Below are positions 13,527-61,514 of a DNA stretch of 64,000 nucleotides, piece by piece. The DNA comes from Alphaproteobacteria bacterium (GTDB lineage: Bacteria; Pseudomonadota; Alphaproteobacteria; Rs-D84), in assembly GCA_017511715.1 (NCBI GenBank), contig JAFWJF010000001.1, positions 2,892 through 66,891 on the forward strand, in the 5' to 3' direction. The notes beneath the pieces are model-generated. The model worked only from the letters and a program-made list of their open reading frames with translations. It was not told where the DNA came from and did no database searches. Position numbers and translations under genes: made by a program. The first letter of the stretch is position 1. Each line of letters starts with the position of its first letter.

Positions 13527-16113
13527 TTGTAATCTTTATAGTATCTTCGTTAATAAATAATTCTGGGGCACGTCCAAAAACATTCCACAATTGTTTGTGC
13601 CAAACCATTTCAGGCGCACGATCCGTGTCGCATCCGTATATATATAATTCATCGCGTGTGCGTGTCATGGCAACATACAACAATCGGTAATATTCCGCTA
13701 TTTGATCGGCTTTGTTTCTGTCAATAATGGGCTGCAGGTTTTCACTGGTTGCCGTTTTCCAAAGCCAAACATCAAAAGAATTATTATTATGCAAATAATT
13801 TACGTTTAATATGATATCTGGTTTTGGAAAAGTTAATGTATCGATTAAAAACACGACTGGTGATGCCAGACCTTTGCTGCCGTGGACTGTCATTATGCGC
13901 ACGCCTTGGGATGCGTCCATGTCGCGTTTAATTTCGCTGTCGCCGGTGATGAACCACTTAAGGAAATGGTGTAATGTGCCCGGTTGGGTGCGCTCATACG
14001 CCAAACACATTGTTAAAAATTCTTCAATTGGGTCAATGACCTGGTTGCCAAGCGCGGCTATGAATTTTTTGCGTGTATCATTTTTATCTAAAACATAACT
14101 AAAAAATGAATATGGTGCTAATTTTGCAGATTTTTCGATAGTGTCAATCAAGTCTGTATAAATATCAAGATTTTGTTCGCTTAAATTATCAAAAACGGTC
14201 GTTTTCTTGTTTCTACACAGATTAAAAATATCTTGTTCTTTCAATCTGTAAATTGGGCTTTTTAATACACAACATAAACTATAATCGTCGGTTTGGTCTG
14301 TGCAAAATCTAATCAGATACAACAAGTCTTTTATTGCAGGAAAATCAGGTAATTTGATTCTGTCGTTGCCGGCAATTGCGATATTGCGTTTTTTTAACGC
14401 AGTGGACAACAAGTTAACAAACGCGCCACGTTTTTGTACAAGTATCATAATATCTTTTGGGTTGCGCCCGGCGCGAACAAATTGTTCTATTTTATCTGCC
14501 AACATGTTCGTGTAGAGTTTGTTCTTTTCTGTGCCGGTCTTTTCGCACTTGAAAACGTCATGAATTTCAACAAAACCCGGTGCTTTCGCCCGAAAGCATT
14601 TGTGCTGATTATTGTGAAAACCTGTTGTTTTAATGATTTCCGGACAATCAAAAAACGCATCGACTGTATCTAGTATTGGTTTTACAGAACGAAAACTTTG
14701 GTCCAGAGATACTTCCTTTATAGTTCGATAATTTTGTTGAATCTGTTCTGCAATTGCGTCGCGACTTAGCGCAAAAGCGCGCGGGTCTGCGTTTTGGAAG
14801 CCGTATATAGACTGCTTTGTGTCGCCGACAACGAATAAAGAACGATTGTTGGCAGTGTTGCCGTCCGTAAAGAAATCGCCGGCTAATGCACGCAAAATGT
14901 TCCATTGTTGTGGACTGGTGTCTTGGGCTTCGTCAACCAGTATGTGCGACAAGGATATGTCCAGTTGGGACAAAACCCAGCCCATGACATCTGGTTTTTC
15001 GAATAATTGTTGCGTGTATAAAATCAAGTCCTCGAAATCTAGCAGGTTGCGCTCTCTTTTTATTTGGCGGTAAGTGTCGGCAAAACCCATAGACAGGTCA
15101 AAAAGTGCGATTGTGTCTTTAAGAATCTTTGTGTTTATAAGGTTTTGTTGAACGGTGTATACTCGCGTGGCTTCGGTTGCCAGCAAATCGTACTTTAATG
15201 TATTTTTTATTATTGTGTTATCACTGGTTAGATATGCGGACTTGTATTTATCGAAATCTATAGTGTTATCAATATATTGTTTGGTCAGGTGTATTGTGTT
15301 TTGTATGTATTGTGCCGGCTTTTTTGATTCTTTTTCGGTTTTGTATGCAAAATCTAAGATTTTTTGCAGATAATCTGGCTTGAATTCTGGGTTTATACCA
15401 TTGTTGATTTTTAGTATTTTTTGTGTTGTTTCAATAAAATATTCACGATATTTATAAATGTCTTTAACTTGAAAAAACGAGCGATATCTGGATAATAACA
15501 AACCACGCAATTCTTCCAAAAAGTATTCAGATTTGATTTCTGTTATTCGATTAAATGCCATCAATATATTTTGCATATTTGTTGTTTTGGTAAAAGATTT
15601 TGTTATCAAGGAATCAAATGCTTCTTGAAGTAAAACCGATTGGGCAGCACCAGACACCAAGGACCAAGATGGTGATATACCTGCCTCCAATGGAAAGCGG
15701 TGCAGAATCTCTTCGCAAAAACTGTGGATGGTTTTTATTTTAAGCATGTCGGGGTTGTCTATATACATATAAAAAACACGGCGAGCATATGCCAAATCTT
15801 TTTTTGTTGCAGGTTGATTTTCAGATATTCCATCCAAGAGCTCTGCTAATTCTGTATCGCTTGCGCGCGCCCAATTGCGCAGTTGGGCTAAGATTCTGTT
15901 GCGCATTTCGCCAGCGGCGGCGTTGGTATATGTCAAACAAAGAATGCCGGGGGCTATATCGTTATTAAATTCGCCATTCCTGAACAAAATTCGCAAAAGC
16001 CTTTGTACAAGGACAGTTGTTTTTCCTGTTCCTGCGTTGGCTTGAACCCAAATATTTTCAGATGGGTTTGATGCGATGTTTTGTGCATCTGAAAAATTTT
16101 CGTTTTGTGACAT
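13483..16113 (-). CDS. addA: double-strand break repair helicase AddA (UvrD-like helicase part)
   Basis: N-terminus QANAGTGKTTVLVQRLLRIL..ILCLTYTNAAAGEM (Walker A, motif Ia), UvrD-family motifs throughout. The 3' end overlaps the nuclease ORF in A/T homopolymer tracts. Confidence 0.85.
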   Translation of the reverse strand: MSQNENFSDAQNIASNPSENIWVQANAGTGKTTVLVQRLLRILFRNGEFNNDIAPGILCLTYTNAAAGEMRNRILAQLRNWARASDTELAELLDGISENQPATKKDLAYARRVFYMYIDNPDMLKIKTIHSFCEEILHRFPLEAGISPSWSLVSGAAQSVLLQEAFDSLITKSFTKTTNMQNILMAFNRITEIKSEYFLEELRGLLLSRYRSFFQVKDIYKYREYFIETTQKILKINNGINPEFKPDYLQKILDFAYKTEKESKKPAQYIQNTIHLTKQYIDNTIDFDKYKSAYLTSDNTIIKNTLKYDLLATEATRVYTVQQNLINTKILKDTIALFDLSMGFADTYRQIKRERNLLDFEDLILYTQQLFEKPDVMGWVLSQLDISLSHILVDEAQDTSPQQWNILRALAGDFFTDGNTANNRSLFVVGDTKQSIYGFQNADPRAFALSRDAIAEQIQQNYRTIKEVSLDQSFRSVKPILDTVDAFFDCPEIIKTTGFHNNQHKCFRAKAPGFVEIHDVFKCEKTGTEKNKLYTNMLADKIEQFVRAGRNPKDIMILVQKRGAFVNLLSTALKKRNIAIAGNDRIKLPDFPAIKDLLYLIRFCTDQTDDYSLCCVLKSPIYRLKEQDIFNLCRNKKTTVFDNLSEQNLDIYTDLIDTIEKSAKLAPYSFFSYVLDKNDTRKKFIAALGNQVIDPIEEFLTMCLAYERTQPGTLHHFLKWFITGDSEIKRDMDASQGVRIMTVHGSKGLASPVVFLIDTLTFPKPDIILNVNYLHNNNSFDVWLWKTATSENLQPIIDRNKADQIAEYYRLLYVAMTRTRDELYIYGCDTDRAPEMVWHKQLWNVFGRAPELFINEDTIKITNDTKLDTIFDWCKK

Positions 16114-16168
16114 TTATGCTCTTGCTTTATTGAAAATATTTTAGTATAAATTTCCTTAAGTTTCAAGG

Positions 16169-18112
16169 ATGTTATTTGTTAGGAGAAAGAGCATGAATCA
16201 AACTTTGTTAATTGTATTATTGTCCGTGGTTTCTTTGGTATTTGTTAATATGATTGCGATATTTTTTATTTCGCGCAAATCTCAACGCGTTATGGGGTCT
16301 TTGTTAGAAATTATGACAAATCCTGAACAGGCAAAAATACAAGATGCCGCCCGCGTTTTACAGACGATATTAAAGGACGAAATTACCAAAATTGATAATA
16401 ATTTTCAGATGATGGCAGGCGCAATGATGAACCAAATTGCGCACACAGAAGAAATAAAAAAGGCGCTTTCAGAACAAAATGATAAATTGGTCGCGACAGC
16501 GGATGAAGCAACAAAAAAAATTGCGGTTATGTCACAAAGACTGGAAAACACGATTGAAGGATTGAATGGTATCGTTTCGTCAAAAGGCTGGTTAGATGTG
16601 CAACAAAGCACGGATAATTTTTCTGCTGTAACGGAAGGCTTGTTAAACAAAATAACAGAAGCGACCACTGCAACCACAGAAAATGCATCTAAGATTCAAG
16701 AACAAATAAATCAGAGCATTGAAACAGAACAGCAAATAAGCGAACAGTTGCAAACGCATTTTGCAAATAATACTAATAATATGCAAGAATTGTCTGCTGC
16801 GGGCGTCGCGTTGCAACAACAACTGACTGATTTAAGTACTAGCGTGACCTCCGGCTTTGATAATGTCACGACTTCATCAAAGAATTATGAAGAAACAATG
16901 CGTCAAAACGATAAATTATTAAGCGAATATTTAACCAAAATGTCAGAATTTACAAAACGTGCAGGCAAAGAATTGACGCGCCAAGTTAACACAATGACCG
17001 AAACAGCAAATGTTGTTGGTGCAAATGTTCGTATGGCGGAAACATCAATAGATAAACAGTTGCGCAAATTAGAATCTGCAATAGAATCGCTTAATGCGTC
17101 GACAACGAACACAACGGCATCTGTACGTGGAATAACAAACGAATTGGCAGGGCTTACGAATCGTTTTGACAGTGAAATTCATGACTTTTCAACTGGGGTT
17201 GTTCGTGAAATCAAAGATGTGTCTGGTGTTGCAAACGCAACATTAGAAAACACTAAATCTGCAGCAACTGAATTTGCAGATTCTGTAAAAAGTATGGGTA
17301 TAGGCGTTCGTGAAACATTGATAGAAATGAACAAGGCACACACACAATTAGCCGGTCAGTCTGAAAACCTTATCAAAATGTCCACCGAAACCACGGAACA
17401 ATTAAAACCTTTGTCTGAATTGATAGAAAAGTATTATGTCGCCCTGCCCGATTTGGCGGCTGGTTCGCGCGACATGAGCGAAAACTTAAATACGATAGTT
17501 AACACGTTGGTTGAAAAAATCAACACTATGAAAACTACAATATCAGAATCTTTGGAAAACATAAACAATTCGTCTGTGCAGTTGGGTAATGTCGCGGGTG
17601 AATCACGTCAGCAAATGATAGATTTGATGGCTGATTATGCCAAGGCTGTTGATGCGATGCAAAGCCTTAATAAACAAATGATGGTTGCGCGGGCTTCTGC
17701 ACCGATGGATGCAATAAAGGTTGCGCCAAGTGCAAATTTTGCGCCGTTAAGCACGAAAGATTTTCTTAATAATGTAGATAAGTTATTTGATAAATTATAT
17801 GAACAGGCGGTCGATTTGACACGCGCATCTAATGCTGAAATACCTGATGTGGTGTGGGACAAATACAACGATGGCGACAAAAAGATATTTGCAAAGTGGT
17901 TGGTAAAAATGTTTAATGCCACGAACAAGAAACAAATTCATGATTTGTTGAAATCTGACAAGATATTTAATTCACAGGCAACGCAATTTGTCCGTAATTT
18001 CGAGAAAGTATTAAACGGTGCGAACCAAACTAATGAAGCAGATAAATTAAAGGCGACATTGCTTAAAACAGATTTGGGCGTAATATATACCGCGATACAT
18101 AAAAACATATAA
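16169..18112 (+). CDS. membrane-anchored coiled-coil protein (Q/T/N/E-rich), unknown function
   Basis: N-terminal TM segment LLIVLLSVVSLVFVNMIAIFFI followed by roughly 550 aa of predicted coiled coil. Confidence 0.5.
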   Translation: MLFVRRKSMNQTLLIVLLSVVSLVFVNMIAIFFISRKSQRVMGSLLEIMTNPEQAKIQDAARVLQTILKDEITKIDNNFQMMAGAMMNQIAHTEEIKKALSEQNDKLVATADEATKKIAVMSQRLENTIEGLNGIVSSKGWLDVQQSTDNFSAVTEGLLNKITEATTATTENASKIQEQINQSIETEQQISEQLQTHFANNTNNMQELSAAGVALQQQLTDLSTSVTSGFDNVTTSSKNYEETMRQNDKLLSEYLTKMSEFTKRAGKELTRQVNTMTETANVVGANVRMAETSIDKQLRKLESAIESLNASTTNTTASVRGITNELAGLTNRFDSEIHDFSTGVVREIKDVSGVANATLENTKSAATEFADSVKSMGIGVRETLIEMNKAHTQLAGQSENLIKMSTETTEQLKPLSELIEKYYVALPDLAAGSRDMSENLNTIVNTLVEKINTMKTTISESLENINNSSVQLGNVAGESRQQMIDLMADYAKAVDAMQSLNKQMMVARASAPMDAIKVAPSANFAPLSTKDFLNNVDKLFDKLYEQAVDLTRASNAEIPDVVWDKYNDGDKKIFAKWLVKMFNATNKKQIHDLLKSDKIFNSQATQFVRNFEKVLNGANQTNEADKLKATLLKTDLGVIYTAIHKNI

Positions 18113-18118
18113 ACATAA

Positions 18119-18149
18119 CGGCATAGAAAATATGCCGTTTGTTTTTTCT
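18119..18149 (+). terminator. rho-independent terminator
   Basis: cggcatagaaaatatgccg hairpin followed by a T-run. Confidence 0.6.
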
Positions 18150-18594
18150 CTTTTATTTGGTGTTTTTTTCTGTTAAAATAACTCTGTCGGCAAGAGTTTT
18201 GCCGATGGGGTGTCAGAACCCGTTTCGATGCGCGTCCATGATGACGTTAAAACTCCAACCAAATTGGGTTGGAGGGCTGCAAAATATATTGAATATGCAC
18301 ACAATTTCGCATTGAATTGTTCTGAACCTCCAACCGCCTGAAATTTCATGCGGTTTTTTTGGTGTTTGTCCCTTTCGTTGGGGTGTTGTGTGGCGATACA
18401 TACGCAAACATTTGCCACCGTCCCCCGAATAAAAGGGATAAAAAAGTTCTCCTCCGTTGGAGGAGTCCCCGCAGGGAGAGGTGGTCTTGAAAGGATGCCA
18501 GATATTTCAAATTCTTGAAAAAGACCACCCCGCCGTTCCGGCACCCCTCCGCAGGAGGGGAACTGGAAGCAGAGCGAATACAAAAAAAGGACAG

Positions 18595-18742
18595 AGAGAA
18601 TACAAGCAAGGTTTTGGAAACGAAGTGCACCGAAACCGTTGCGGTATACACGCAGACACAAAGTGTCGAGTGAATACGAGAACAAATAATTAGAAAAATC
18701 TTAAAAAATCGAAGTTTACAAGATTTTTTTGATTTTAATTAT
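18595..18742 (+). repeat. tRNA-associated repeat element, copy without tRNA duplication (long variant); likely carries a promoter
   Basis: ggttttggaaacgaagtgcaccgaaaccgtt...cacgcagacacaaagtgtcgagtg matches 32186-32243 and the reverse complement of 2664-2720. The 3' 75 bp matches 38622-38697. A TTTACA-N17-ATTATT promoter-like sequence and a GGAGG RBS lie directly upstream of 18763. Confidence 0.55.
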
Positions 18743-18762
18743 TGTTTATCGAGGAGGAAAAA

Positions 18763-19488
18763 ATGAAAAAGTTTTTGGTATTTATGTCGTTGGTGTTTGT
18801 GTGTGGTATTGCTTCCGCTGAAACAATAAATGTGAATTGGGTTGTTGATGGTGATACTTATGCGCAGACATCTTGCGAAACGGGTGGAAATTTTACTCTG
18901 CCAACAACGCCAACAAAATACGGGTATCATTTTGTTGGTTGGCAACAAGATGGTTCAATTGGTTATTGGGAACAATCGGGAACACCGACACCGGACAATC
19001 CAATCGAACCGATTTTCAGACAGTTTGGAAATACTGTTCTGCGTGCTGTGGGCAGTGGAAACAATTTAATTGCAGATAGTTATGATGTATCAACAGGAAA
19101 AATAACAAGAAGAATCGGGGTCAAGGTACTGGATGGAACGGAGACTTGGGCGACCGACCCGGTTGGAACAGGTGGACATATTAGATTTAATTATAGTTGG
19201 CCTGCTCCCTACAAAAAACCAGGGTTTGATATTTTGACAAATATGTTTCCTACTCAACCGGGCGTTGTTGGCCCAAACGCTACCAGTGCAGTGATAAGTG
19301 GGCACGACACTAACAGGAATATATACATTGCTTTCCCGGCAAACCTTTTAGATGGTGATTTAACCACTACTATAGGGCGCAGAACTGCCTTTAACAACTG
19401 GCTTTCTGCACAATACAACGCAGGTACACCTGTAATCATTTATTACCCATTGGCAACACCTGTTGAAGAAGCCTATAACGCACAATAA
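18763..19488 (+). CDS. secreted protein with a Listeria-Bacteroides-type repeat (Flg_new-like)
   Basis: Signal peptide MKKFLVFMSLVFVCGIASA. Motif NFTLPTTPTKYGYHFVGWQ. Related to parts of the giant protein at 41012. Confidence 0.6.
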   Translation: MKKFLVFMSLVFVCGIASAETINVNWVVDGDTYAQTSCETGGNFTLPTTPTKYGYHFVGWQQDGSIGYWEQSGTPTPDNPIEPIFRQFGNTVLRAVGSGNNLIADSYDVSTGKITRRIGVKVLDGTETWATDPVGTGGHIRFNYSWPAPYKKPGFDILTNMFPTQPGVVGPNATSAVISGHDTNRNIYIAFPANLLDGDLTTTIGRRTAFNNWLSAQYNAGTPVIIYYPLATPVEEAYNAQ

Positions 19489-19490
19489 AC

Positions 19491-20222
19491 ATGAGAAAGA
19501 TTGTTTTTGTTTTTATTGTTGTTTTTAATGCGCCCCTTGCATACGCTGATTTAATTACCGACAATACTTCTAATTATTGTGATTTTATAAGTATGCAGCC
19601 AAATTTATCGGCAGTATTTGAACCGAATGAATACACCTGTGCAAGCGGTTATTATTTACCTGTGAATCACGATGGGTGCGAACCATGCCCAAGTGAACAC
19701 ACATGCAATGGCGGAACTTTTACTTTTGATGAAAATGAATCACAGGGGATAACGTATGGCACAATAATAACATCTGGATATGATTACGGCTGTGACCCAC
19801 ATCTTGCTTTTGGTTTTTATACGGCGGTATTCGAACCAAATTCTCACGAATGTTCATCGGGTTATTATTTGCCGGCAAGCACCGACGAATGTATAATTTG
19901 TCCGCAAAATTCTTATTGTAGTGGTGGTGTGTTCTTTTTTAATGAAACAGAAAATCAGGGTATAAATACATGTGCGCCAGGTTTATTTTCGCCGTCTGGT
20001 TCGTCATCTGATTCACAGTGTGGACATAAATTACACGTTGGTAATGATGTTGTTTATCTGCGTAGTGTAAAAAAGACAGTGCCATCACTTCATGTGAAAA
20101 TTGGCAATGATATTTATTATGGCAATATGACAAAGATACGAACAAAGATGAACACAGATTTAATGCGGTATTTTCGTATCGGTGATTATTATTTGTGTGA
20201 TGATACAACGTGTCCAGAATAA
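19491..20222 (+). CDS. secreted cysteine-rich repeat protein that shares a ~65-aa C-terminal domain with the giant surface protein
   Basis: Signal peptide. Two CxSGYYLPxxxDxCxxCP repeats. C-terminus CGHKLHVGNDVVYLRSVKKTVPSLHVKIGNDIYYGNMT...YYLCDDTTCPE parallels the last 65 aa of the 3533-aa protein. Confidence 0.6.
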   Translation: MRKIVFVFIVVFNAPLAYADLITDNTSNYCDFISMQPNLSAVFEPNEYTCASGYYLPVNHDGCEPCPSEHTCNGGTFTFDENESQGITYGTIITSGYDYGCDPHLAFGFYTAVFEPNSHECSSGYYLPASTDECIICPQNSYCSGGVFFFNETENQGINTCAPGLFSPSGSSSDSQCGHKLHVGNDVVYLRSVKKTVPSLHVKIGNDIYYGNMTKIRTKMNTDLMRYFRIGDYYLCDDTTCPE

Positions 20223-20223: not shown

Positions 20224-20252
20224 AAAAAAAACGCCCATACAGGCGTTTTTGT
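20224..20252. terminator. bidirectional rho-independent terminator
   Basis: aaaaaaaacgcccatacaggcgttttt. Confidence 0.6.
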
Positions 20253-31263: not shown

Positions 31264-31354
31264 GGAGATGTGGCAGAGCTGGTTGAATGCGCGTGACTCG
31301 AAATCACGTATACGGGCAACCGTATCGGGGGTTCGAACCCCTCCATCTCCGCCA
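31264..31354 (+). tRNA. tRNA-Ser (anticodon CGA)
   Basis: ggagatgtggcagagctggttgaatgcgcgtgactCGAaatcacgtatacgggcaaccgtatcgggggttcgaacccctccatctccgcca. Long variable arm, CCA encoded. Confidence 0.85.
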
Positions 31355-31948: not shown

Positions 31949-31962
31949 AAAGAAATCACACA

Positions 31963-32108
31963 TCAAAATCATATGAATTAACAGATTTTACAATCGCATC
32001 AACCAATTTGTTTTGATGAGAATCTGATTTTAATAATTTTTCTTCGTTTTTGTTGGACAAATGCCCCAGTTCTATCAATGCACCCGGTACAGTCGAACGC
32101 AATACTGG
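31963..32108. repeat. direct duplicate of the 3' end of amiC (~145 bp, one mismatch), partner at 33898-34042
   Basis: tcaaaatcatatgaattaacagattttacaatcgcatcaacc...cgaacgcaatactg present twice. Confidence 0.85.
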
Positions 32109-32258
32109 TCATTTTTTATTTATCGTGTATGGGTATGGGGTTAGACGCTACAACGAAGTTGTTGGGTTCGACAAGCAGTAGGTTTTGGAAGCAAGGCGCA
32201 CCAAAACCGTTACGATTGCCCCGCAGGCGAAAGCCGAGGAAATCCTCCATCTCCGCCA
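32109..32258 (+). mobile_element. tRNA-3'-end-associated repeat element (short variant) ending in a duplicated tRNA-Ser(CGA) 3' end
   Basis: Core caacgaagttgttgggttcgacaagcagtaggttttggaagcaaggcgcaccaaaaccgttacgattgcc, about 85% identical to the reverse complement of 2664-2760. The final 15 nt cctccatctccgcca equal 31340-31354. Confidence 0.7.
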
Positions 32259-32288: not shown

Positions 32289-33875
32289 TTATCTGCTGTT
32301 GTCAGGAATTGTCTTGTCCTGTGTTTTTGTAGTTGTTTTTTTTAACAGTTTTTTTACTGCATTTTTCAATTTTTCTTTTTTGCTTTCCCCTTGCATTTTC
32401 AATTTCAGTTCGTTTGCGAAATCTTTAAACTTTTCATGCAAAACAATTGATACTTTGTGAGGTTCTGGTTTCACAAAAATATTATCACTCCATAAAAAAT
32501 CACTCCCTATTCCTTTAACATTTGGCAGATTTATCGACTTTAAGTTTGTATTTTCAGTTAAAAATTCATCGCCAATATCTTCTACTTTCGGTAAACTTAT
32601 TGATGTTAACATTTTATTGTAATACAAGAATCTATTACCAATTTTTTCAACTTTTGGCATGTTTATTGATGTTAATATTTCGTTATTTTCCAAGAAATAG
32701 TCGCCAATTCTTTTTACAGATGGCAAATCTATTGATGTCAATGCGTTATTAGAATTTAAGAAATGCATACCGATTTGTTCGACCTTTGGTAGCGCTATTG
32801 ATGATAACATCTTGTTCTTCACTAAGAAATCACAACCAATTTTCTTAACATTTGGTAAATTTATTGTTGTTAAACTTTTGTTGTGTTCTAAAAAAACGTC
32901 TTTAATTTTTTCTGTTGTAGCTAAATCTAATTCTATAATCTGCCCTTTGAATATTACAATACGATTGCCGTCCAGTGTGGATAACGTCGTTTCTTTTGTT
33001 ATTTTGTTATATGTTCTGGTAACTTTTTTCCCGTTAAATGCCAGATAAAAAACATCAAATGTTGTGCCGTAATCAATTGGTGAAGTTATTGTTTTATCTT
33101 TATCATTATAAATCATGCCATCAAACATGATTTCGCGGTCTTTGTTCAATCGTGTAATTGTGCCACCAGTAAAATAATAATCGTCACCGATGTAAATGTT
33201 GTCTCTTTCAAAACTGTACCAGACCAACTGGTCATTAACCCAAACATAGTTATTTGGCATTTTAATATCAGAAACATTGAATTCTACATCAAAGAATTTT
33301 CGCAATGAATTTGTAAGTCCCGGGATGATATTATCTGGGTTATTACCGAATGTTGCATCTGGATTGTTTACTGTATGGTTATAACGATTTTTAATAGATA
33401 TAAATCCACCACCCTTTGCAATTTGAATTGATATAACAGATGTTCCGTATTCGTCTTCGCGTTCTGGATTTGCGGATGGTTTTATTTTGTCTGCGCCACG
33501 TTTTACCGCATGAATTATATAAAAGTTTTCATGCCTATTGGGGTCACTGAAAGTACATAATTCTTCGCCGGGGCGATAATATTTTTTTATTGAATCTTTT
33601 TGTTTTTTACTTTCAACTATAAACGCGTCATAGCCCGCTTCATCTAACAATTCTAACGGCTTTTTATCTGTGGTATATTGGGATGCAGACATTATTTTAC
33701 ATTTAGACCGGATTGTTGGTATCAATCTTTCTAGATCTTCTAATTGTGTAAATTCTAATATGTGTTCAATATTTGGAACATCCAGCAATTCGGCATTGCG
33801 AAGAATCTTGGCAAAACGTTCACCGCGATGCTTTTTAATATTTTTAAAAACTTCGGCTGTATCTATTTCTTTCAT
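32289..33875 (-). CDS. BspA-type leucine-rich repeat protein with unknown N-terminal domain
   Basis: C-terminal tandem repeats of about 23 aa (LPNVKKIGCDFLVKNKMLSSIALPKVEQIGMHFL...). No signal peptide. Confidence 0.7.
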   Translation of the reverse strand: MKEIDTAEVFKNIKKHRGERFAKILRNAELLDVPNIEHILEFTQLEDLERLIPTIRSKCKIMSASQYTTDKKPLELLDEAGYDAFIVESKKQKDSIKKYYRPGEELCTFSDPNRHENFYIIHAVKRGADKIKPSANPEREDEYGTSVISIQIAKGGGFISIKNRYNHTVNNPDATFGNNPDNIIPGLTNSLRKFFDVEFNVSDIKMPNNYVWVNDQLVWYSFERDNIYIGDDYYFTGGTITRLNKDREIMFDGMIYNDKDKTITSPIDYGTTFDVFYLAFNGKKVTRTYNKITKETTLSTLDGNRIVIFKGQIIELDLATTEKIKDVFLEHNKSLTTINLPNVKKIGCDFLVKNKMLSSIALPKVEQIGMHFLNSNNALTSIDLPSVKRIGDYFLENNEILTSINMPKVEKIGNRFLYYNKMLTSISLPKVEDIGDEFLTENTNLKSINLPNVKGIGSDFLWSDNIFVKPEPHKVSIVLHEKFKDFANELKLKMQGESKKEKLKNAVKKLLKKTTTKTQDKTIPDNSR

Positions 33876-33890: not shown

Positions 33891-35084
33891 TTAAACGTCA
33901 AAATCATATGAATTAACAGATTTTACAATCGCATCAACCAATTTGTTTTGATGAGAATCTGATTTTAATAATTTTTCTTCGTTTTTGTTGGACAAATGCC
34001 CCAGTTCTATCAACGCACCCGGTACAGTCGAACGCAATACTGCAAATGGCGCATGACGGACAGATGGGCCTTTTTGTTGTTCTATGCTTGCGCGATTAAA
34101 CGATTTAGCACATCCATTTGCGTATTCTTCGCTTAATTCTGCAACAGCACGTTGTTGCAGTGAAGACAAGGCAACACGAATATCTTTGGAAAATTGTTCA
34201 AATCCGTTAACATCTATTTTATCCGCAGCATTTTCTGAATCTGCCAATTTTTGCGCTTCTTCGTCTGATGCTTTTTCAGACAAAGTATAAATTGAAAAGC
34301 CCTTCATGTCACGACTTGGGTTTGCGTTTGCATGCAAAGAAATGAATAAATCGGCGTGTTTCTTTTCGGCAAATTCTGCGCGTTCTGCCAATTTAAGAAA
34401 AGTATCATTAGAACGAGTCAGGTATGTTTTGTATCCGTTTGCTTCCAGTTTGCTTTTCAGTTTTTTTGCGACAGACAAAACAACCGTTTTTTCTTGTGTG
34501 CCACCACGCCCTGTACATCCCGGGTCTTTGCCACCATGTCCAGGATCAATAACTATGACACGTTTCGCAGAATTATTATTTGTTGTTGATTTTGTTTCTG
34601 ACTTTGTTGCTGTTTTTGCAGTCGTTGTTGATACGGGGGCTGATACGTCTATTCCGCGCCCTGTCCCGGCAGCAAAATCAATAACCAACCGATAATCGTT
34701 ATCGCCATTTGGTTCCAGAATCATTATTTGTTTTTTATCAATCGCGTCTATAAGCCCAGATAATGCACACAACACCTGTAATTTCGTACCATCTTGAATT
34801 TGGGTGACGCGCTTTATCATTGTGTCGTTTGCCAGTTTTGGCTGTATACTGCTGCTGCCCGAAGTGTTTGACAGATTTACAATTAACTGTTTGTCACCAT
34901 AAGATAAATCATATACTGGACGTGAAGAAGTTTCGATTACTAATCGTGTCTTGCCGCCTGGTTGCAGACCTGTTCTTATTGAACGCACCGCATTCGGTGC
35001 AGAAAAAGCAACACGTGGTGCAATCCCAACGACTAACGCACTGAAACTAACTGTCCTTAAAAGTTGTCTGCGACTTAATTTCAT
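33891..35084 (-). CDS. amiC: N-acetylmuramoyl-L-alanine amidase (AmiC-like; Tat signal, AMIN and Amidase_3 domains)
   Basis: Tat motif SRRQLLRTVSF and amidase core VIVIDPGHGGKDPG...LFISLHANA. The ORF could start at 35132. Confidence 0.9.
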   Translation of the reverse strand: MKLSRRQLLRTVSFSALVVGIAPRVAFSAPNAVRSIRTGLQPGGKTRLVIETSSRPVYDLSYGDKQLIVNLSNTSGSSSIQPKLANDTMIKRVTQIQDGTKLQVLCALSGLIDAIDKKQIMILEPNGDNDYRLVIDFAAGTGRGIDVSAPVSTTTAKTATKSETKSTTNNNSAKRVIVIDPGHGGKDPGCTGRGGTQEKTVVLSVAKKLKSKLEANGYKTYLTRSNDTFLKLAERAEFAEKKHADLFISLHANANPSRDMKGFSIYTLSEKASDEEAQKLADSENAADKIDVNGFEQFSKDIRVALSSLQQRAVAELSEEYANGCAKSFNRASIEQQKGPSVRHAPFAVLRSTVPGALIELGHLSNKNEEKLLKSDSHQNKLVDAIVKSVNSYDFDV

Positions 35085-35162
35085 GAGAATCATTATATCA
35101 AAAAAAAGACATGGTTTCAAGAAAAGTTGCAATAAAAAAAACCGCCACTGTGGCGGTTTGAT

Positions 35163-38458: not shown

Positions 38459-38535
38459 GCACCCATAGCACAACTGGATAATGCGTTGGCCTCCGAAGCC
38501 AAAGATTGCAGGTTCGAGTCCCGCTGGGTGCGCCA
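38459..38535 (+). tRNA. tRNA-Arg (anticodon CCG)
   Basis: gcacccatagcacaactggataatgcgttggcctCCGaagccaaagattgcaggttcgagtcccgctgggtgcgcca. Confidence 0.85.
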
Positions 38536-38575: not shown

Positions 38576-38712
38576 TTATGAAGCACCGCGGGACAGGTCA
38601 GAGCGAAGCGCATGACCAATCCGCAGATAAACAATTAAGAAAATATTAAAAAATCGACGTTCACGAGATTTTTTTGATTTTATTTATTGTTTATCAAGGG
38701 CTGGGTGCGCCA
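38576..38712 (+). mobile_element. tRNA-associated repeat element (long variant) ending in a duplicated tRNA-Arg 3' end
   Basis: 38622-38697 is about 85% identical to 18667-18742. The upstream part is a diverged version of the core (aagcgca..acc.a.ccgcag). It ends with gctgggtgcgcca, equal to 38523-38535. Confidence 0.6.
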
Positions 38713-38876
38713 CAAATAAAAAGCCGGTCTTTTAATTATTTTTTTATATAAAAATGCGTCAAAAAGGCCGGCAACAAAAACAAACTGTTTTTTTAATTTT
38801 TTGCGTTATATCAATCAGAAATCGCATGTTATTAAAGCAAAAAATAAAACCGGTTGTTCAACCGGTTTTTATCTGC

Positions 38877-41011: not shown

Positions 41012-44000
41012 ATGGCGGGAATCAAGCCTTTTTATAACATGTTAAAGCGTTTAATATTTGCAATATTCGTAGTGTTTACTGCAAATTCTGCATTTGCGGC
41101 GTGTGCTAGCAATCAAATTGATGTAAATGGTGATGGAACCAAATGTGAGGATGTGAAATTCACATTAGACCTTTCCAGAAGTTCAAACATAACGGTTTTC
41201 AATTTCTTTATGTCTGCCAAAGGAACATTTTATGTCGATTGCGGCAATGGCGGAACATTGACCAGCAATTCTGCCACTAATTACCCGGTATCGGGCAAAA
41301 CAGTTAACCGTACCTATGGAACGGGTAATGTAAGGTACTCTTGTACATGGGCCAATGGCAGCAAGACACAAACAATTAGGTTTGGTGGGGTTGCAGAAGG
41401 ATATAGCACCAATACAAGCACCGCCGCAATACGTTTTAATTATAATGCAACACAAGCGGCATATATAACATCAGTTTCTGGTAATTTGTCCGCTATGTTC
41501 CCGTATATTACAAACAATGCACAAAGTGGTGCACAACCAAGATTTTATATGACTTTTGATAAAGCGACAAACCTGAAAAGTATCCCCGATACATTGTTTG
41601 CAAATTACACAACACCGGCAACAAATATGTTTCATTCTACGTTTAACAATTCAGGATTGACATCAATACCTAGCAATTTGTTTTCCACCATATCTGGCGC
41701 AGCAGAAGGTCTGTTTTCTAGCACATTTAATGGATGTACCGGCTTAACATCAATACCTGGCAATTTGTTTTCCACCATATCTGGCGCAGCAAACAGCTTG
41801 TTCTATGGCACATTTCAGAATTGTACCGGCTTAACATCAATACCTAGCAATTTGTTTTCCGGGGTGTCTGGCGGGGCAAGTTCTATGTTTTTTTTCACGT
41901 TTAAAGGATGTACCGGCTTAACATCAATACCTGGCAATCTGTTTTCCACCATATCTGGCGCAGCAAACAGCTTGTTCTATGGCACATTTAGTGGATGTAC
42001 CGGCTTGACATCAATACCTAGCAATTTGTTTTCCACCATATCTGGCGCAGCAGACGGTCTGTTTTCTAACACATTTAATGGATGTACCGGCTTAACATCA
42101 ATACCTGGCAATCTGTTTTCCGGGGTGTCTGGCGGGGCAAGTTCTATGTTTTCTTACACGTTTAATGATTGCAGTTCGATATCTGCAATACCGGCAGGAC
42201 TATTTTCCGGTGTAAACCAGGCGGCAACAGGTTTGTTCATGAATGCATTTTCTGGTTCTGGGGTAAGTGGTTATATACCACCGACCACATTTTCCGGGTT
42301 GATTTCGGCGGGCAGCCCACAAAGTTCAGATATGTGGCTAGATACATTTTCATACACGAATTTAACAGCGACTTGTCCACAGGGAACAACGCAGTATATG
42401 ACAGGATACGAAGGTGGCACTAATGGTCCTACATGGAATGGGATGGTTTCTTGTACGCCAAATTCGACCACTGCAATTGCAGTAACTTTGGACAGTGCAG
42501 GCGCGACCACAAATGCCACACCTTCGACAATATATCTTCGATACGAGGATCGTTGGTACAGTAATTCTGCCCTTTCTGTTCAGATAAGTTCGCTTAACAC
42601 CATTCCATCAAAAACGGGATATATGTTCGGCGGTTTTTACACTCAACCAAATGGTTCCGGAATACAAATTATCAATTCAAATGGTTACATCTTGCAAACC
42701 ATGGAAGCAATCACGTTTACAACCACACCGACAACCGTGTATGCTTATTGGATAGAACCAAAGTTCACATTAACAACATCATCGACCAACAGTTTTCAAT
42801 TTAAACTATCTGCCGCTGGTACATTCTATGTAGACTGCGGAAACGGTGGAACGTTAAGTGGAACCGGGGCGTCCGGAAACACAATTACGCGTGCCGACAC
42901 AACCGAAGCGACATATACATGTTCATGGACCAACAGTGCAACACGAACAATCAGATTCAGCGGTGCCGCAACCGGGTATAATTCGTCTTATGGTGTTGCA
43001 GCAATAAAGTTTAATATGACAGATGCTGCCACTGATGCAAACGCAGCATTGTTAACGGGTATGTCTGGCACACTGGGGTCAATATTCGGAACAGTTGCCA
43101 CCGCCAGCACAGGCTCTGTTCAACCAGCATTTAATAAGACATTTTATGGTGCATCAAACCTTAATGCGTCAATACCGTCAAACTTTTTTGCGGGCGTTCA
43201 TGGTGCACCACGCGGGGGAATGTTTCAACAAACCTTTTCTGGATGCAGCAGTTTGACCGGCTCTATCCCAGAAACCCTATTCTGTGAAAACACGACCAAT
43301 CCAAGTGCATCAAACTGTATCTATGGAGCACCAATTGGGGCAATGTTTGAACATACATTCCTTGGTTGTAGTGGTTTGACGGGTTCTATCCCAGAAAAAC
43401 TGTTTGTGGGTATCCATGGCGCGCCTGCAAGTTATATGTTTTCTCAGACATTTAATGGATGTAGTGGTTTGACGGGTTCTATCCCAGAAAAACTATTCTG
43501 TCAAAACACAACCAGCCCATCTGCATCAAACTGTATCTATGGCGCACCGGCATCATCTATGTTTGCCTTGACATTTTATGGATGTAGTGGATTAACTGGC
43601 TCTATTCCAGAAAAACTGTTCGTTGGTATCCATGGTGCACCAGCAAATAATATGTTTCAACAAACATTCTATAATTGTAGTGGTTTAACTGGCTCTATTC
43701 CAGAAAAACTATTCTGTCAAAACACAACCAGTCCATCTACATCAAACTGTATCTATGGCGCGCCGGCAAGAGCTATGTTTTTTCACACTTTTTCTGGTTG
43801 TACAAATTTAACTGGTTTGATACCACAAAACCTTTTCAAAGGGATATACGGCGCGCCGGCAGAAAATATGTTTAATGGTACATTTAGGAATGACAACAAA
43901 TTGACAGGAATAACCGACGGCACAACTACCACAACCTATGTTCCATCAACATTCCTTAGCGCGATTAACAACACAAGCGCAACAACACCAGCAACAGGAA

Positions 44001-50000: not shown

Positions 50001-51613
50001 GTGCATCATCTTGTTCAACTGTAAGCAGTGGATATTACTCAACAGGATGTACATCTAATAATAACTGTACAGGACAATCACAGTGTACGGGTGCAACATA
50101 CTGTGCAAGTGGTGTACAAAACAACTGTCCGACAGCAGAAAGCACATGGACACAGGGTACTGGTAATGGATGGACAGCTGTAACACAGTGCTTTGAGACC
50201 AAGAACGCAACAGATGTAAGCAGTTATTGCAGTGCTGGACAATTAAAGAAGAACGCTACGAACACCACGACCTGGGGCGACAGCACAATAAGCACAGCGT
50301 TGAAAGCAAAAGCGGGTTCTATTGTAAGCGGACAAACATGTACACAATGTACAGGTGCCACATTCTCGGCTGGTGATACTGCGACAAGTTGTAGTGCATG
50401 CCCGACTGGATATGATGCGAACACAGATGCTGGCAAGAGCACGAACACACAATGCCAGATAAGTGTGACGGGCGGTCATTATATTGGTACGAAGGGTCAG
50501 ACAAGTTCTAACTGGGATACATGTGCGGCAGGTACATACAAGGCAGCACACACTGTGAACTATAACAGCACAAGTAGTTGTTCGAACTGCGAAGGCAGAA
50601 CGAAGTACAGTGCGGCGGGTGCATCATCTTGTTCAACTGTCACCAGCGGATACTATTCAACCGGTTGTGACACATCGACAAACAATAACTGTACAGGACA
50701 ATCAAAGTGTACTGGAAAAACATATTGCACAAATGGTGTACAGGAAGATTGTCCAGCCGCAGCTGATCACAAACGTACAACGTTCCCAGCAGCATATTAT
50801 TCGCCAACAATTACAAGCACATCCATAATGAGTGCCAGTAGACGCAAGGCAATCACAGAATGTAAGGCTTCTTCGACAATGACTGGGGCACGCGGAACAT
50901 TGATTGATCAAGCAACATATAACCCAACCACAGAAGAATACGACACCACAACATGGTATGGATATTATAATGTTAAACCGGGGTATTATTTGACCACCAC
51001 GGGCAGTTGCGGAACATACGCATACTATCAAAATGCGGAAATTTGTCCAGATGGTGCTTATTGTCCGGGCAAGGCGGGGGTTAAGTGTGATTCTAGCAAC
51101 GAAGCAACCGTTCATACGCCAACATTCGGTCTGGAAGAATGTTCAGCATTGAACAGCGAATATACAAAATCTGATAGTGGGCGCAATGCAGCAACCGATT
51201 GCTATCTGAACACGACAGCAACAAAATATGTTGCAACTGCTGGTGAAAACCAAGTTGATTGTATTGCAGACGGATATTGTCCGGGTAATGTAAAGATATA
51301 TTATAACAGCATTGGTGGACGCACTGCGTGCCCTGCCACAGCACCATATAGTGGCGCGGGTATGTCAAGGCCCGAACAATGCGGACGCAAGTTGCATATT
51401 GGCGATAACGTAATGTATTTGCGTTCTGAAAAAGCAACGACACCTTCGCTGAACGTCAATTTTGGTGGCATGACATATTATGGAAATATGGCAGAAACCC
51501 AAGCAAACATTACAAGTTCTTCAACCAAAGAATTGAAGATTAAATACAAAAATAATAACAAATTGTACTACTTGTGTGATGACACAACCTGTCCAGAGGC
51601 AGACAACGATTAA
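41012..51613 (+). CDS. giant secreted mosaic surface protein (3533 aa): four N-modules with BspA-like LRR blocks, Listeria-Bacteroides repeats, ephrin-receptor-like Cys-rich repeats, conserved C-terminal domain
   Basis: Signal peptide MAGIKPFYNMLKRLIFAIFVVFTANSAFA. Four copies of KFTL..F.FKLSAAGTFYVDCGNGGTLSG...TYTCSW...TIRFGG. LRR repeats LFxxISGAAxxLFxxTFxGCTGLTSIP. Repeats of the form YxITYxxNGG...GYxFKGW. More than 20 C..G.Y..(A)G...C..CPAGKxxxG motifs. Single uninterrupted ORF. Confidence 0.9.
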   Translation: MAGIKPFYNMLKRLIFAIFVVFTANSAFAACASNQIDVNGDGTKCEDVKFTLDLSRSSNITVFNFFMSAKGTFYVDCGNGGTLTSNSATNYPVSGKTVNRTYGTGNVRYSCTWANGSKTQTIRFGGVAEGYSTNTSTAAIRFNYNATQAAYITSVSGNLSAMFPYITNNAQSGAQPRFYMTFDKATNLKSIPDTLFANYTTPATNMFHSTFNNSGLTSIPSNLFSTISGAAEGLFSSTFNGCTGLTSIPGNLFSTISGAANSLFYGTFQNCTGLTSIPSNLFSGVSGGASSMFFFTFKGCTGLTSIPGNLFSTISGAANSLFYGTFSGCTGLTSIPSNLFSTISGAADGLFSNTFNGCTGLTSIPGNLFSGVSGGASSMFSYTFNDCSSISAIPAGLFSGVNQAATGLFMNAFSGSGVSGYIPPTTFSGLISAGSPQSSDMWLDTFSYTNLTATCPQGTTQYMTGYEGGTNGPTWNGMVSCTPNSTTAIAVTLDSAGATTNATPSTIYLRYEDRWYSNSALSVQISSLNTIPSKTGYMFGGFYTQPNGSGIQIINSNGYILQTMEAITFTTTPTTVYAYWIEPKFTLTTSSTNSFQFKLSAAGTFYVDCGNGGTLSGTGASGNTITRADTTEATYTCSWTNSATRTIRFSGAATGYNSSYGVAAIKFNMTDAATDANAALLTGMSGTLGSIFGTVATASTGSVQPAFNKTFYGASNLNASIPSNFFAGVHGAPRGGMFQQTFSGCSSLTGSIPETLFCENTTNPSASNCIYGAPIGAMFEHTFLGCSGLTGSIPEKLFVGIHGAPASYMFSQTFNGCSGLTGSIPEKLFCQNTTSPSASNCIYGAPASSMFALTFYGCSGLTGSIPEKLFVGIHGAPANNMFQQTFYNCSGLTGSIPEKLFCQNTTSPSTSNCIYGAPARAMFFHTFSGCTNLTGLIPQNLFKGIYGAPAENMFNGTFRNDNKLTGITDGTTTTTYVPSTFLSAINNTSATTPATGMFTGTGLASSCPTWAAAATPVWATDAGKPWCEPDIKFTLNTLATNSFQFKLSAAGTFYVDCGNGGRLSVVNGNGTVSGNTITKTGTSWGTFECSWDDTEPQTLRFGGAASGYTASQSGGAIRFNVSDTNQDDDTNAPKITGISGSLGAIFGTIDGTVSPTGAESQPRFYGTFWAASNLAGSIPDELFYGIHGTPISYMFNRTFRGCSSLTGKIPETLFCQNTSNPNASNCIYGAPTQQMFYMTFHGCSGLTGNSSTGYAIPAKLFAGIRGDPSSASSVFGYTFSGCSGLNGQIPETLFCQNPNSPSASNCIYGAPASNMFSFTFQGCTGLTGDGIHAVPVKLFAGLHGAPAPKMFQSTFTGDTGLTGEIPPALFCGGNTNNLSNPSASNCIYGTPATEMFNSTFYNTRITHVDKNMFAGISGTSAEKMFYRTFKSCSSLSYINDTFNTKATTYIPSDFLGGITDGSVTNDATEMFTGTGLTSPCPTGTATATPAWATDAAKPWCAPNTYSITYDMNGGTNYSGAPTTYVYGTSTTINGAPTKSGYIFKGWTGSNGSTPQPTVTIGASATGAKSYTANWETAKFTLTTSGMSDFSFKLSPKGTFYVDCGNGGTLSGQSASGSTVSVNTITRTTTTATTYTCSWASSAGNKTISFGGSATNTTTTYNSDTNVPAIHFLESSNADSIKSVSGNLSAMFPYITSNAQSGAQPRFNRTFYDATHLTSVPDTLFANYTTPATYMFSNTFASSGLTSIPAGLFSRITGAATGLFEGTFSGARLTSVPAGLFAGISGVADSLFNSTFTGTPITSIPENLFAGVSGSASGVFSYAFYRCASLATITNGQTSTTYVPGTFLSDVTGNDNYIGADMFGMTDLADTCPYGMGDTTPAWASDAGKPWCSPNTYTITYSAGQGGVGANQTENVVFGTTFTTKSANTFSKPHATFTGWDTLEYSSAWTQPDTTYTYDLPSDITIAAQWTCDSGYTLNNSTGNCDANSITCDPGFYLKGNTLTCTACPAGKYCAGGTYTHNGTDLGITGDVTAGYFASGGAKVAAPTSNSDCLSGNTCGKCTTDSATGRPAYSTAGAASCSACPAVTGDMASRVISYAGWWSNDIHNAVTGCAAWFNDTDNDATFRVYCYYNTTDGAYGGSNSICQVWHPTACAAGKYDTIESTTEWLASANYTRGKGVDFMNGKVCTNTDAGYYSAEGSLTQTACAAGSYSSAGASTCTACPAGKTTAGTGTAFNTNANTTCSTSCSSIANLKTWNSQTWNSANNTVTNLCTVATCNAGAYKSGNTCPVCGANSWSDDGASSCTACNTTNGYTNSGTTAAAHAGQYSCKTTCAAGKQVASPGEACSTPGGSWYSVQHTVGEGSTSAVQLISNPNVFDCLIGGYATPDTTIQTDHDASTDCRITCSAGSRVTTPNGMCTAITSGNVYMLEHTVAQGSTSPKATSCPTSYTISGSTQADHDAKNDCKITCGAGYVVDTEDGNCIVPEEGFQTGIHTVSAGSVTRIDKDPGMNVPRAGIWYDCLTNYSATGKSAINHDQRSDCKITCNAGTQIATNNATRCTTPTGSWYTEQHTVSAGSTSSPTSCATGYATANTSTATDHDAQADCKIGCSAGYYIPTAGGGCKACPAGKYCTAISGIAETATSAATGNITAGYFASGGAKVATPTSSSDCLSGNTCGTCQGQNGPNGRPLYTDATGGAAQCSECPAVEASLTSRVVSYGYWPDTRDRGIQNCSAKFTDTDPDATFTTECYYRGSNYHESFNCQTAAPTACAAGKYETIRTTDKWGTYYAIGTGVDHMNGKVCTDTDAGYYSAEGSLTQTACATGSYSSAGASTCTACPAGKTTAGTGTAFNTNANTTCSTSCSSITNLKTWNSQTWNSSNNTVTNLCTVATCNAGAYKSGNTCPVCGANSWSDAGASSCTACQTDYTNSGTTATNHAGNASCKITVSGGHYIGTPGQNSTNWGTCDAGTFKAQHTVAYGSTSSCSNCEGRTKYSAAGASSCSTVSSGYYSTGCTSNNNCTGQSQCTGATYCASGVQNNCPTAESTWTQGTGNGWTAVTQCFETKNATDVSSYCSAGQLKKNATNTTTWGDSTISTALKAKAGSIVSGQTCTQCTGATFSAGDTATSCSACPTGYDANTDAGKSTNTQCQISVTGGHYIGTKGQTSSNWDTCAAGTYKAAHTVNYNSTSSCSNCEGRTKYSAAGASSCSTVTSGYYSTGCDTSTNNNCTGQSKCTGKTYCTNGVQEDCPAAADHKRTTFPAAYYSPTITSTSIMSASRRKAITECKASSTMTGARGTLIDQATYNPTTEEYDTTTWYGYYNVKPGYYLTTTGSCGTYAYYQNAEICPDGAYCPGKAGVKCDSSNEATVHTPTFGLEECSALNSEYTKSDSGRNAATDCYLNTTATKYVATAGENQVDCIADGYCPGNVKIYYNSIGGRTACPATAPYSGAGMSRPEQCGRKLHIGDNVMYLRSEKATTPSLNVNFGGMTYYGNMAETQANITSSSTKELKIKYKNNNKLYYLCDDTTCPEADND

Positions 51614-61311: not shown

Positions 61312-61335
61312 CACCCTTTCGGGTGTTCAAACTTT
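61312..61335 (-). terminator. terminator following the duplicated tRNA-Gly(GCC) 3' end
   Basis: Plus strand aaaaaacaccctttcgggtgttcaaac. Minus strand is a hairpin plus T-run. Confidence 0.5.
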
Positions 61336-61348
61336 GGTGCGAGCAAAG
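61333..61348. repeat. duplicated 3' end of tRNA-Gly(GCC) (tttggtgcgagcaaag), partner at 61436-61451
   Basis: 16-bp exact direct repeat flanking an 87-bp insert. Confidence 0.75.
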
Positions 61349-61437
61349 TACTTCGGCAACTAGCGTTGCCTCGCCTCGCAACTCGCCCCTTTGCCGCAAA
61401 AATCAAAAACCGCCCTAACGGACGGTTTTAAAATTTT

Positions 61438-61514
61438 TGGTGCGAGCAAAGGGGCTCGAACCCTCGACCTCAACCTTGGCAAGGTTGCGCTCTAGCCAAC
61501 TGAGCTACGCTCGC
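61438..61514 (-). tRNA. tRNA-Gly (anticodon GCC)
   Basis: Reverse complement gcgagcgtagctcagttggctagagcgcaaccttGCCaaggttgaggtcgagggttcgagcccctttgctcgcacca. Confidence 0.85.

Follow-up and report, generated by a model that had tools for sequence, protein, structure and literature searches.

Two small open reading frames (ORFs) lie 2 nucleotides (nt) apart in the DNA of an alphaproteobacterium of the order Rs-D84, and the locus raises the question of where the pair came from and what controls its expression. The DNA is a 64,000-nt stretch of contig JAFWJF010000001.1 (assembly GCA_017511715.1), here called the window; all window coordinates refer to this full stretch. ORF1 (18763..19488) and ORF2 (19491..20222) are both on the plus strand. 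A preliminary description took the pair to be a miniature of a giant protein of 3533 amino acids (aa) encoded in the same window, and placed its promoter and ribosome-binding site in a repeat associated with tRNA genes. The analysis reported here leads to another explanation, which as a whole we consider probable: the pair is one copy of a two-gene cassette for exported proteins, the cassette would be controlled by a switch in a structured leader RNA, and the copy in the window is chimeric.

The two proteins

Both ORFs were found where the preliminary description had placed them. ORF1 starts with the ATG at 18763, as does the deposited protein of 241 aa, and is 100% identical to a protein from a metagenome-assembled genome (MAG) named 'InlB B-repeat-containing protein' at NCBI. 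The same two-ORF locus is intact in several other samples. In line with the signal peptides claimed earlier for the two proteins, aa 1-19 of each look like one, with a start rich in lysine and arginine, a hydrophobic core and an AxA site, which falls between ASA and E in ORF1 and between AYA and D in ORF2. The N-terminal helices in the structure models of both proteins would fit a Sec signal peptide.

The Listeria-Bacteroides repeat described earlier in ORF1 is an InlB-type B-repeat at aa 24-66. It was matched by the Pfam family Flg_new (PF09479) with 28.6 bits against a cut-off of 27 (E=1.6e-6), and it matches a solved InlB B-repeat (PDB 2y5p, E=2.4e-4). The stricter NCBIfam model TIGR02543 gave 15.8, below its cut-off of 20.95. 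The C-terminal domain, aa ~70-241, is of a minority type, and these remaining 170 aa have no relative in Pfam, PHROG, NCBIfam or among solved structures. A phage tail-fibre or receptor-binding protein was considered for this domain and rejected for want of a PHROG or structural match. The structure model of ORF1 has a predicted local distance difference test (pLDDT) value of 81.

ORF2 is 243 aa long. Its two cysteine repeats, aa 40-87 and aa 111-158, are 56% identical (E=4e-21), in agreement with the preliminary description, and are followed at aa ~160-243 by a beta-rich C-terminal domain (CTD) of ~85 aa. The pLDDT of the model is 82, and above 93 in the CTD part. Eighteen columns are invariant in the ORF2 family and 10 of these are Cys, which fits an extracytoplasmic location. 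With its spaced CxxC motifs and invariant cysteines, ORF2 comes closest to Ephrin_rec_like (PF07699), DUF7631 (PF24634) and the Cys repeats of TNFR, although every match of the window proteins to these falls below the curated cut-off or the limit of significance. The best fold matches, to the Cys-rich domains of TNFR and EphA2, were weak (best Foldseek E-value 0.04). Against DUF7631 ORF2 scored 17.6, below the cut-off of 27, and the family member P0062 scored 28.3 against the same cut-off. Searches of PHROGs, NCBIfam and PDB sequences added nothing for ORF2 or for the C-terminal domain of ORF1. The CxxC proteins of Giardia, of the variant-specific surface protein (VSP) type, provide an analogy to these cysteine repeats.

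A conserved two-gene cassette

Sixty-four homologs of ORF2 were collected, 38-98% identical to it, mostly ~240 aa long and covering 85-100% of the query, and at every locus looked at an ORF1-like gene lies directly upstream. When species-representative genomes were scanned, the single ORF2 sequence found nothing, whereas a profile made from the alignment found 80 loci, all in MAGs of Candidatus Enterousia or of unnamed gut and rumen Alphaproteobacteria. Several MAGs have many loci, with at least 13 cassettes in RUG12675, and the housekeeping genes that flank the cassettes differ from locus to locus. About 54 loci have the order leader, ORF1-like gene (215-265 aa), ORF2-like gene (210-270 aa); the gap between the two genes is -8 to +7 nt in 47 of 54 cassettes, and in the window it is 2 nt, measured from the stop codon of ORF1 to the start of ORF2.

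With the same layout at more than 50 loci, spread over many MAGs, the pair is on this evidence an old two-gene unit. Judged from where its sequences occur, it is specific to Candidatus Enterousia and its relatives in Rs-D84, which are Alphaproteobacteria with reduced genomes. Members of the order are fermentative, have genomes of less than 1 Mbp, lack biosynthetic pathways and probably depend on other cells (PMC12306168). Searches of the literature on Enterousia and Rs-D84 turned up no paper that describes these proteins or the leader RNA.

In ORF1-type proteins homology extends over the first 70 aa in 56 of 60 cassettes, and the C-terminal parts that follow fall into at least three unrelated classes, with 47, 9 and 2 members. 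The class seen in the window is rare, being common only to one other of the 60 cassettes (L006), and has about 70 relatives in metagenomes, some of them within longer proteins that have no B-repeat. The closest ortholog of ORF2 (P0006) is 69% identical over aa 1-173 and then has no CTD, and at another locus (L021) the leader precedes a 565-aa fusion of B-repeat, Cys repeats and CTD. These exchanges of modules, together with the presence of the CTD in proteins of 80-6644 aa, support the earlier suggestion of a surface-protein family that grows by domain shuffling. On the protein side the cassette represents a new modular family, confined to this lineage, in which some of the domain types are known.

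The cassette would encode exported, disulfide-rich surface or secreted proteins. ORF1-type proteins would present an exchangeable C-terminal 'head' domain on a constant signal peptide and B-repeat. ORF2-type proteins would join two Cys repeats to a CTD that also ends hundreds of other exported proteins and may sort proteins to the surface or anchor them there. The two products, encoded so close together, presumably act jointly.

A structured leader RNA

When the intergenic DNA of four loci was aligned, the conserved part was a block of ~200 nt corresponding to 18172-18368 in the window, and not the repeat of the preliminary description. The block was found upstream of 40 cassettes with nhmmer. 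At its start is a predicted extended -10 promoter element, TGTTAAAAT (TGnTAnAAT; 18171..18179, plus strand), and in 36 aligned leaders there is little or no variation at T3, A4, A7 and T8 of the TAnAAT box.

The fold was obtained from an alignment of these 36 sequences (A4) with RNAalifold. The RNA of ~190 nt occupies 18186..18360 on the plus strand, where the covariance model R1, built without the pseudoknot, gave 185.9 bits. Its helices are P1 (18186-18206), P2 (18208-18221), P3 (18232-18247), P4 (18253-18275), P5 (18276-18300) and P6 (18302-18319). A pseudoknot is formed between the P2 loop (18213-18219) and 18319-18325, and the RNA ends in an intrinsic terminator with a T run (18332-18360). 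The minimum-energy fold of the window leader, at -66.4 kcal/mol (z = -4.44), is this terminator state.

In A4, 93.1% of cells pair, compared with 36-51% when the partners are slid, compensatory changes occur in 25 of 45 pairs, and the terminator stem is 100% paired. The observed pairing was reached by none of 500 shuffles. Among 97 distinct independent leaders from metagenomes the corresponding values are 95.2% of cells and 33 of 45 pairs. Over both sets the slid controls gave 31-51% pairing, no shuffle of 500 came up to the observed values, and these are two to three times as high as in the slid controls. The pseudoknot, which stands outside the covariance model, pairs in 98.6% of cells of the 97 metagenome sequences, and all six of its pairs covary. 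The covariance model finds copies before nearly all cassettes, including those of a divergent subclass. Within the window it finds one copy, that at 18172-18368, and the gene for the giant protein has none.

Comparison with the 4227 families of Rfam 15 yielded only tRNAs at the gathering score in the whole window, and nothing credible at E<=1 in 18050-18800. The transfer-messenger RNA, signal recognition particle RNA, 6S RNA, RNase P RNA and riboswitches were considered for the 650-nt intergenic region, and none was found. A conserved leader peptide of the kind used in trp-type attenuation was also rejected; the only candidate ATG, in the GATGGGG block, becomes GTG, ATT, ACG or TCG in other copies. 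A structured leader RNA is strongly supported by the alignments, and it is apparently undescribed.

Two competing helices

P4 is made of two segments, A (CTCCAACC) and B (GGTTGGAGG, 18267-18275). Segment B can also pair with a third segment, C (CCTCCAACC, 18327-18335), which overlaps the 5' half of the terminator stem. The predicted B:C helix, spanning 18267..18335 on the plus strand, excludes both P4 and the terminator stem. Pairing is kept in 98.9% of cells for A:B and in 99.7% for B:C. Four variants of the segments occur, given here in the order A, B, C: CTCCAACC, GGTTGGAGG and CCTCCAACC; CCCTGACN, GGTCGGGGR and YCCCCGACC; CTCCTGC, GGCAGGAGG and CCTCCTGCC; and GCCTGACC, GGTCGGGTG and CACCCGACC. 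Over the four variants A and B are complementary at 7 or more of 8 positions in 34 of 37 rows, and B and C at 8 or more of 9 positions in 30 of 37. Since the three segments co-vary, selection appears to maintain both pairings, a pattern characteristic of a terminator/antiterminator switch. When the B:C state was forced in a model that allows nested pairs only, it was 15.5 kcal/mol less stable than the terminator state.

The position of the genes is consistent with such a switch. In 60 cassettes the start codon of ORF1 lies a median of 15 nt past the end of the leader model, and in 40 of them the distance is 20 nt or less. This leaves no room for a separate promoter, and the genes would be transcribed only through the terminator. 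In the mechanism proposed here, the leader, transcribed from its own extended -10 element, would set the expression of the family. In the default state P4, the core closed by the pseudoknot and the terminator would form, and transcription would stop before ORF1. An effector, which may be a small molecule, a protein or an RNA, would favor the B:C antiterminator, and RNA polymerase would then read into the cassette.

Leaders beyond the cassettes

An exact-pattern scan of metagenomes gave at least 120 further leader sites, and at roughly 100 loci per search the covariance model matched 98 copies from gut and rumen over their full length, with 81-186 bits. These leaders precede many unrelated small proteins, a few of which are XRE-type regulators. 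By a crude rule ~70% of the first ORFs downstream start like signal peptides, compared with 27% of control ORFs. Leaders also occur in tandem, head to tail, with four complete copies at 143-1009 of locus L132 and two at 2297-2687 of locus L159, each with its own -10 box and terminator. A lone leader on the minus strand of L132 (5126-5302) has no gene behind it.

A viral origin was considered and rejected: of 2.9 million IMG/VR contigs only 4 have the leader pattern and none has the CTD. In these four contigs (L209-L212), which are classed as viral, the leader stands before genes with membrane- or secreted-looking products; the contigs are possibly prophage-adjacent or misclassified host DNA.

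The chimeric locus in the window

The leader in the window is separated from ORF1 by 394 nt, the largest gap among the 60 cassettes. This space is taken up by a repeat-derived insert of ~390 nt (18361..18752), made of small repeats, among them a segment common to locus L054 and two pieces of a family that adjoins duplicated 3' ends of tRNA genes elsewhere in the window. The tRNA-end-associated pieces are at 18598-18673, and the repeat here called D17 is at 18673-18754, directly upstream of ORF1. Pieces of the insert recur in L001, in L054, and at 38640-38695 and 2662-2682 of the window.

The sources of the two parts can be traced in a relative, the Candidatus Enterousia sp. genome JAZURV. By blastn one region of that genome is collinear with window 14659-18359 at 77.6% identity, through a helicase gene, the gene for a 647-aa protein, the terminator of that gene and the leader. 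The 647-aa gene of the window (16169-18112) ends in a terminator-like hairpin with a 9-bp stem and a T run (18117..18139, plus strand), and its ortholog has the same hairpin in locus L079. Collinearity stops right after the leader terminator, and in the relative a different gene follows (L079, 3518-5381, from JAZURV010000013.1). It encodes a 530-aa protein that is 42% identical to the N-terminal module of the giant protein and has a weak match to DUF285, so the building blocks of the giant also occur as small genes preceded by a leader. ORF1 and ORF2 of the window are orthologous to another locus of the same relative, L006, which has its own leader 11 nt before ORF1, and nucleotide homology with L006 begins at 18753, at the end of D17. 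With the L079-like part ending at 18359 and the L006-like part beginning at 18753, the locus in the window is chimeric: its leader comes from one site, its coding pair from another, and repeat DNA fills the joint. An intact leader would have been inherited together with the 647-aa gene and joined to a cassette from elsewhere, and the pair would be transcribed either by read-through from this leader or from a new start inside the insert.

The presence of a tRNA-associated repeat upstream of the pair, as described earlier, is confirmed: D17 is 83% identical to 38618-38699, and its 35-nt core had no chance match in 100 shuffles. The second copy lies beside tRNA-Arg and precedes no gene. The promoter-like site reported in the repeat does exist, in the form TTTACA-16-AATTAT at 18715-18742, with 9 of 12 positions matched. 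It is indistinguishable from chance, since the region has 11 such sites and shuffled sequences have 6.3 +/- 2.7. The site may still act as a promoter. The ribosome-binding site GAGGAGG (18751..18757, plus strand), 6 nt before the ATG, straddles the end of D17, and the second copy has TCAAGGG at this place. The proposal that the repeat is the control element of the pair is not upheld: the upstream element found throughout the family is the leader RNA with its own predicted promoter, and the repeat was inserted locally and is peculiar to this genome.

The insert also contains a GC-rich nested palindrome of ~120 nt (18444-18564), each arm of which has a small hairpin, in an AT-rich genome. The same palindrome is found in inverted orientation at 5084-5198 of L001, where an unrelated cassette has it between its leader and ORF1. 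In form it is similar to a miniature inverted-repeat transposable element or a repetitive extragenic palindromic element.

The giant protein and the shared C-terminal domain

Pairwise alignment with the giant protein, the check proposed in the preliminary description, was significant for ORF2. Residues 126-243 of ORF2 align with aa 3406-3529 of the giant at 39% identity (BLASTP, E=8e-23), which verifies the shared CTD, placed at aa 3439-3528 of the giant (51326..51595, plus strand), and the Cys repeats align with aa 1963-2052 (E=2e-7). The CTD profile also recovered the giant (P0215, identity confirmed) at E=5e-29. Against Ephrin_rec_like the giant scored 18.5, below the cut-off of 23.1. For ORF1 nothing significant was found in the giant; the best alignment (E=0.17) lies inside the B-repeat motif, so that only a domain type is in common. 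The giant is also named 'InlB B-repeat-containing protein' by NCBI. Its four N-terminal modules are DUF285/BspA-like and absent from the pair. The view of the pair as a miniature of the giant therefore holds for the Cys repeats and CTD of ORF2, which are homologous to the C-terminal part of the giant, and fails for the main domain of ORF1, which is not in the giant, and for the N-terminal modules of the giant, which are not in the pair.

The giant gene itself (41012-51613) is highly repetitive, with periodic repeats of 87 nt and 216 nt. The protein has four N-terminal modules of ~400 aa and two duplicated Cys-rich blocks of ~600 aa, ~91% identical in DNA. A variant of 3768 aa belongs to the same 90% cluster, which suggests that the giant varies in length by gain or loss of repeats.

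The CTD profile matches 730 protein clusters, 429 of them at E<=1e-10. Among the best 150 matches the domain is at the extreme C-terminus in about four-fifths and internal in about one-fifth. In some large proteins with a non-terminal CTD-like domain (P0263, P0299, P0287, P0268 and others) ~130-260 residues follow it, and the non-terminal matches begin at profile position 9-10. These proteins may form a distinct subfamily with an extra C-terminal module. Known sorting and anchor domains, including the CTD of the type IX secretion system, the autotransporter barrel, LPXTG and PEP-CTERM, were sought in ORF2 and the giant, and none was found at E<=0.1 in Pfam or E<=1 in NCBIfam.

Comparison with known systems

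ORF1 resembles InlB B-repeat proteins (PF09479, TIGR02543) in the repeat, which scores above the Pfam cut-off and matches the solved structure. It differs in having one repeat, ~18% of the protein, without leucine-rich repeats (LRR) or GW modules, and its host is a diderm alphaproteobacterium. The CTD of type IX secretion in Bacteroidota, offered here as an analogy only, is likewise a domain that ends hundreds of unrelated signal-peptide proteins in one lineage. The ORF2 CTD, in contrast, has no sequence match to known sorting domains and is internal in some of its best hits. Type IX secretion is not known to occur in Alphaproteobacteria.

With riboswitches, such as the pseudoknotted c-di-GMP-II class found upstream of adhesin genes, and with T-box leaders and protein-dependent attenuators, the leader shares a pseudoknotted 5' domain, a terminator before the ribosome-binding site and a competing antiterminator, and the genes behind it encode surface or secreted proteins. 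It is unlike them in having no Rfam match, in its tandem and orphan copies, and in its number, which reaches at least 13 cassettes in a single MAG and is very large for a genome of less than 1 Mbp. The vsp, vsa and vlp genes of Mycoplasma are families of variable surface proteins with a conserved 5' region. Here, too, many paralogs of exported proteins with modular, variable bodies share an upstream region and a signal peptide in a reduced, partner-dependent genome. The present family is unlike those in that each copy has its own predicted promoter and a folded RNA switch, in that the conserved part is selected for RNA pairing and not only for sequence, and in that no invertase or inversion sites were seen.

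Alternative explanations

The reading closest to the preliminary description, in which the pair arose recently as a by-product when domains were shuffled out of the giant, and took its promoter and ribosome-binding site from the tRNA-associated repeat, is possible, although we doubt it. ORF2 does have the Cys repeats and CTD of the giant, D17 abuts the ribosome-binding site with TTTACA-16-AATTAT 20 nt upstream of it, and the start of L006 homology exactly at the repeat end implies that the native upstream region was replaced. The layout of the pair is too widely kept to be recent, however, the main domain of ORF1 has no counterpart in the giant, the promoter-like site is at chance level and the other D17 copy serves no gene, and the family-wide leader is intact at this very locus. 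That the two ORFs are decayed fragments of a larger surface-protein gene would account for their adjacency on the same strand and for the occurrence of their domain types in one giant. It is extremely improbable and already contradicted by what is conserved: a putative signal peptide starts each ORF, layout and lengths are kept in about 54 loci at 40-98% identity, and both ORFs are intact in several samples.

Two other readings concern the leader. It is unlikely, in our estimate, to be a free-standing, multi-copy small RNA that acts in trans, placed by co-mobility or shared promoters and unrelated to the expression of the window pair. The tandem arrays and orphan copies of L132 and L159, the strong terminator of the default fold and the 394-nt gap in the window all speak for it; the start codons that closely follow the leader in 40 of 60 cassettes, which would be reached only through the terminator, speak against it, as does the conservation by co-variation of a B:C helix that destroys the terminator and is needless for a pure small RNA. 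Less likely still is a DNA-level recombination or mobility site for cassette exchange, comparable to integron attC or to the 5' regions of variable surface genes. Synteny with L079 does break exactly at the leader 3' end and a different gene follows there, the cassettes lie in a different neighborhood in every genome, and the leaders are dispersed repeats. Yet the conserved promoter box and T-run terminator point to RNA, the pseudoknot and six helices have compensatory changes on one strand and lie in every case in the same orientation as the gene that follows, a recombinase is not regularly found close by at the loci examined, and homologous recombination between dispersed leaders explains the breaks in synteny without a dedicated site.

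A switch-controlled cassette for exported proteins, present in the window as a chimera, remains the probable explanation, and several points weigh against it. The orphan and tandem leaders without a cassette are no easier to reconcile with a leader than with a free-standing small RNA, and control of the window pair by its leader may have been lost across the long gap. Promoter use, termination and read-through are inferred from the sequence of the leader, and no ligand, binding protein or secretion machinery was identified. The metagenome leaders were selected by exact B and C sequences, so that covariation of B:C can be tested only in the smaller genome-derived sets A4 and A8. On the protein side, the signal peptides were judged by eye and by a crude rule, ORF2 and its CTD have no significant relative among solved structures, the CTD having no recognizable solved fold, and a search with the structure model of ORF1 found no solved fold related to its C-terminal domain.

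A bolder form of this explanation, somewhat less likely than the repeat-promoter reading, would make the leader a new riboswitch-like class that senses a metabolite or second messenger coming from a partner cell or announcing it, and switches on the entire variable secretome of a gut alphaproteobacterium that depends obligately on partners, copy by copy or all together. The CTD would then be the address tag of a new surface-display pathway, and the leaders would be anchors for cassette exchange, as the chimeric window locus suggests.

Other repeats and terminators in the window

The pair and a converging guanylate kinase-like gene are closed by a two-way terminator-like hairpin at 20227..20250, found by the terminator scan on both strands. 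Of the five tRNA genes in the window, four (Gly-CCC, Ser-CGA, Arg-CCG and Gly-GCC) have their 3' ends duplicated 100-900 nt downstream (2611-2663 and 2791-2843; 32244-32258 and 31340-31354; 38700-38713 and 38523-38535; 61333-61348 and 61436-61451). In one case the terminator is duplicated as well, and the DNA beside the duplicates is one repeat family, pieces of which are in the insert before ORF1. The duplicates look like scars of integrative elements that target tRNA genes, or like a small mobile element tied to tRNA ends.

A direct repeat of 148 nt, 99% identical, occurs at 31960-32107 and 33895-34042. An N-acetylmuramoyl-L-alanine amidase gene on the minus strand (33891-35132) has the second copy as its 3' end. 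Between the copies, adjoining the duplicated end of tRNA-Ser, is a BspA-type LRR gene (32289-33875, minus strand), and this position suggests that the gene arrived by insertion.

Implications

Candidatus Enterousia and the order Rs-D84 are uncultured bacteria of gut and rumen with genomes below 1 Mbp, for which a life at the expense of other cells has been proposed (PMC12306168). Their tiny genomes devote a visible share to a large, modular family of probably exported proteins, and the shared CTD would mark the surface proteome of the lineage and offers a handle for cataloguing it. The leader is unusual for its copy number and its link to the secretome. Present in so many copies, and with strong covariation among them, it lends itself to a search for ligands and to the use of metatranscriptomes for a direct reading of regulation. 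The locus in the window is an example of how small repeats, by their insertion, can uncouple a conserved regulatory RNA from the genes it belongs to.

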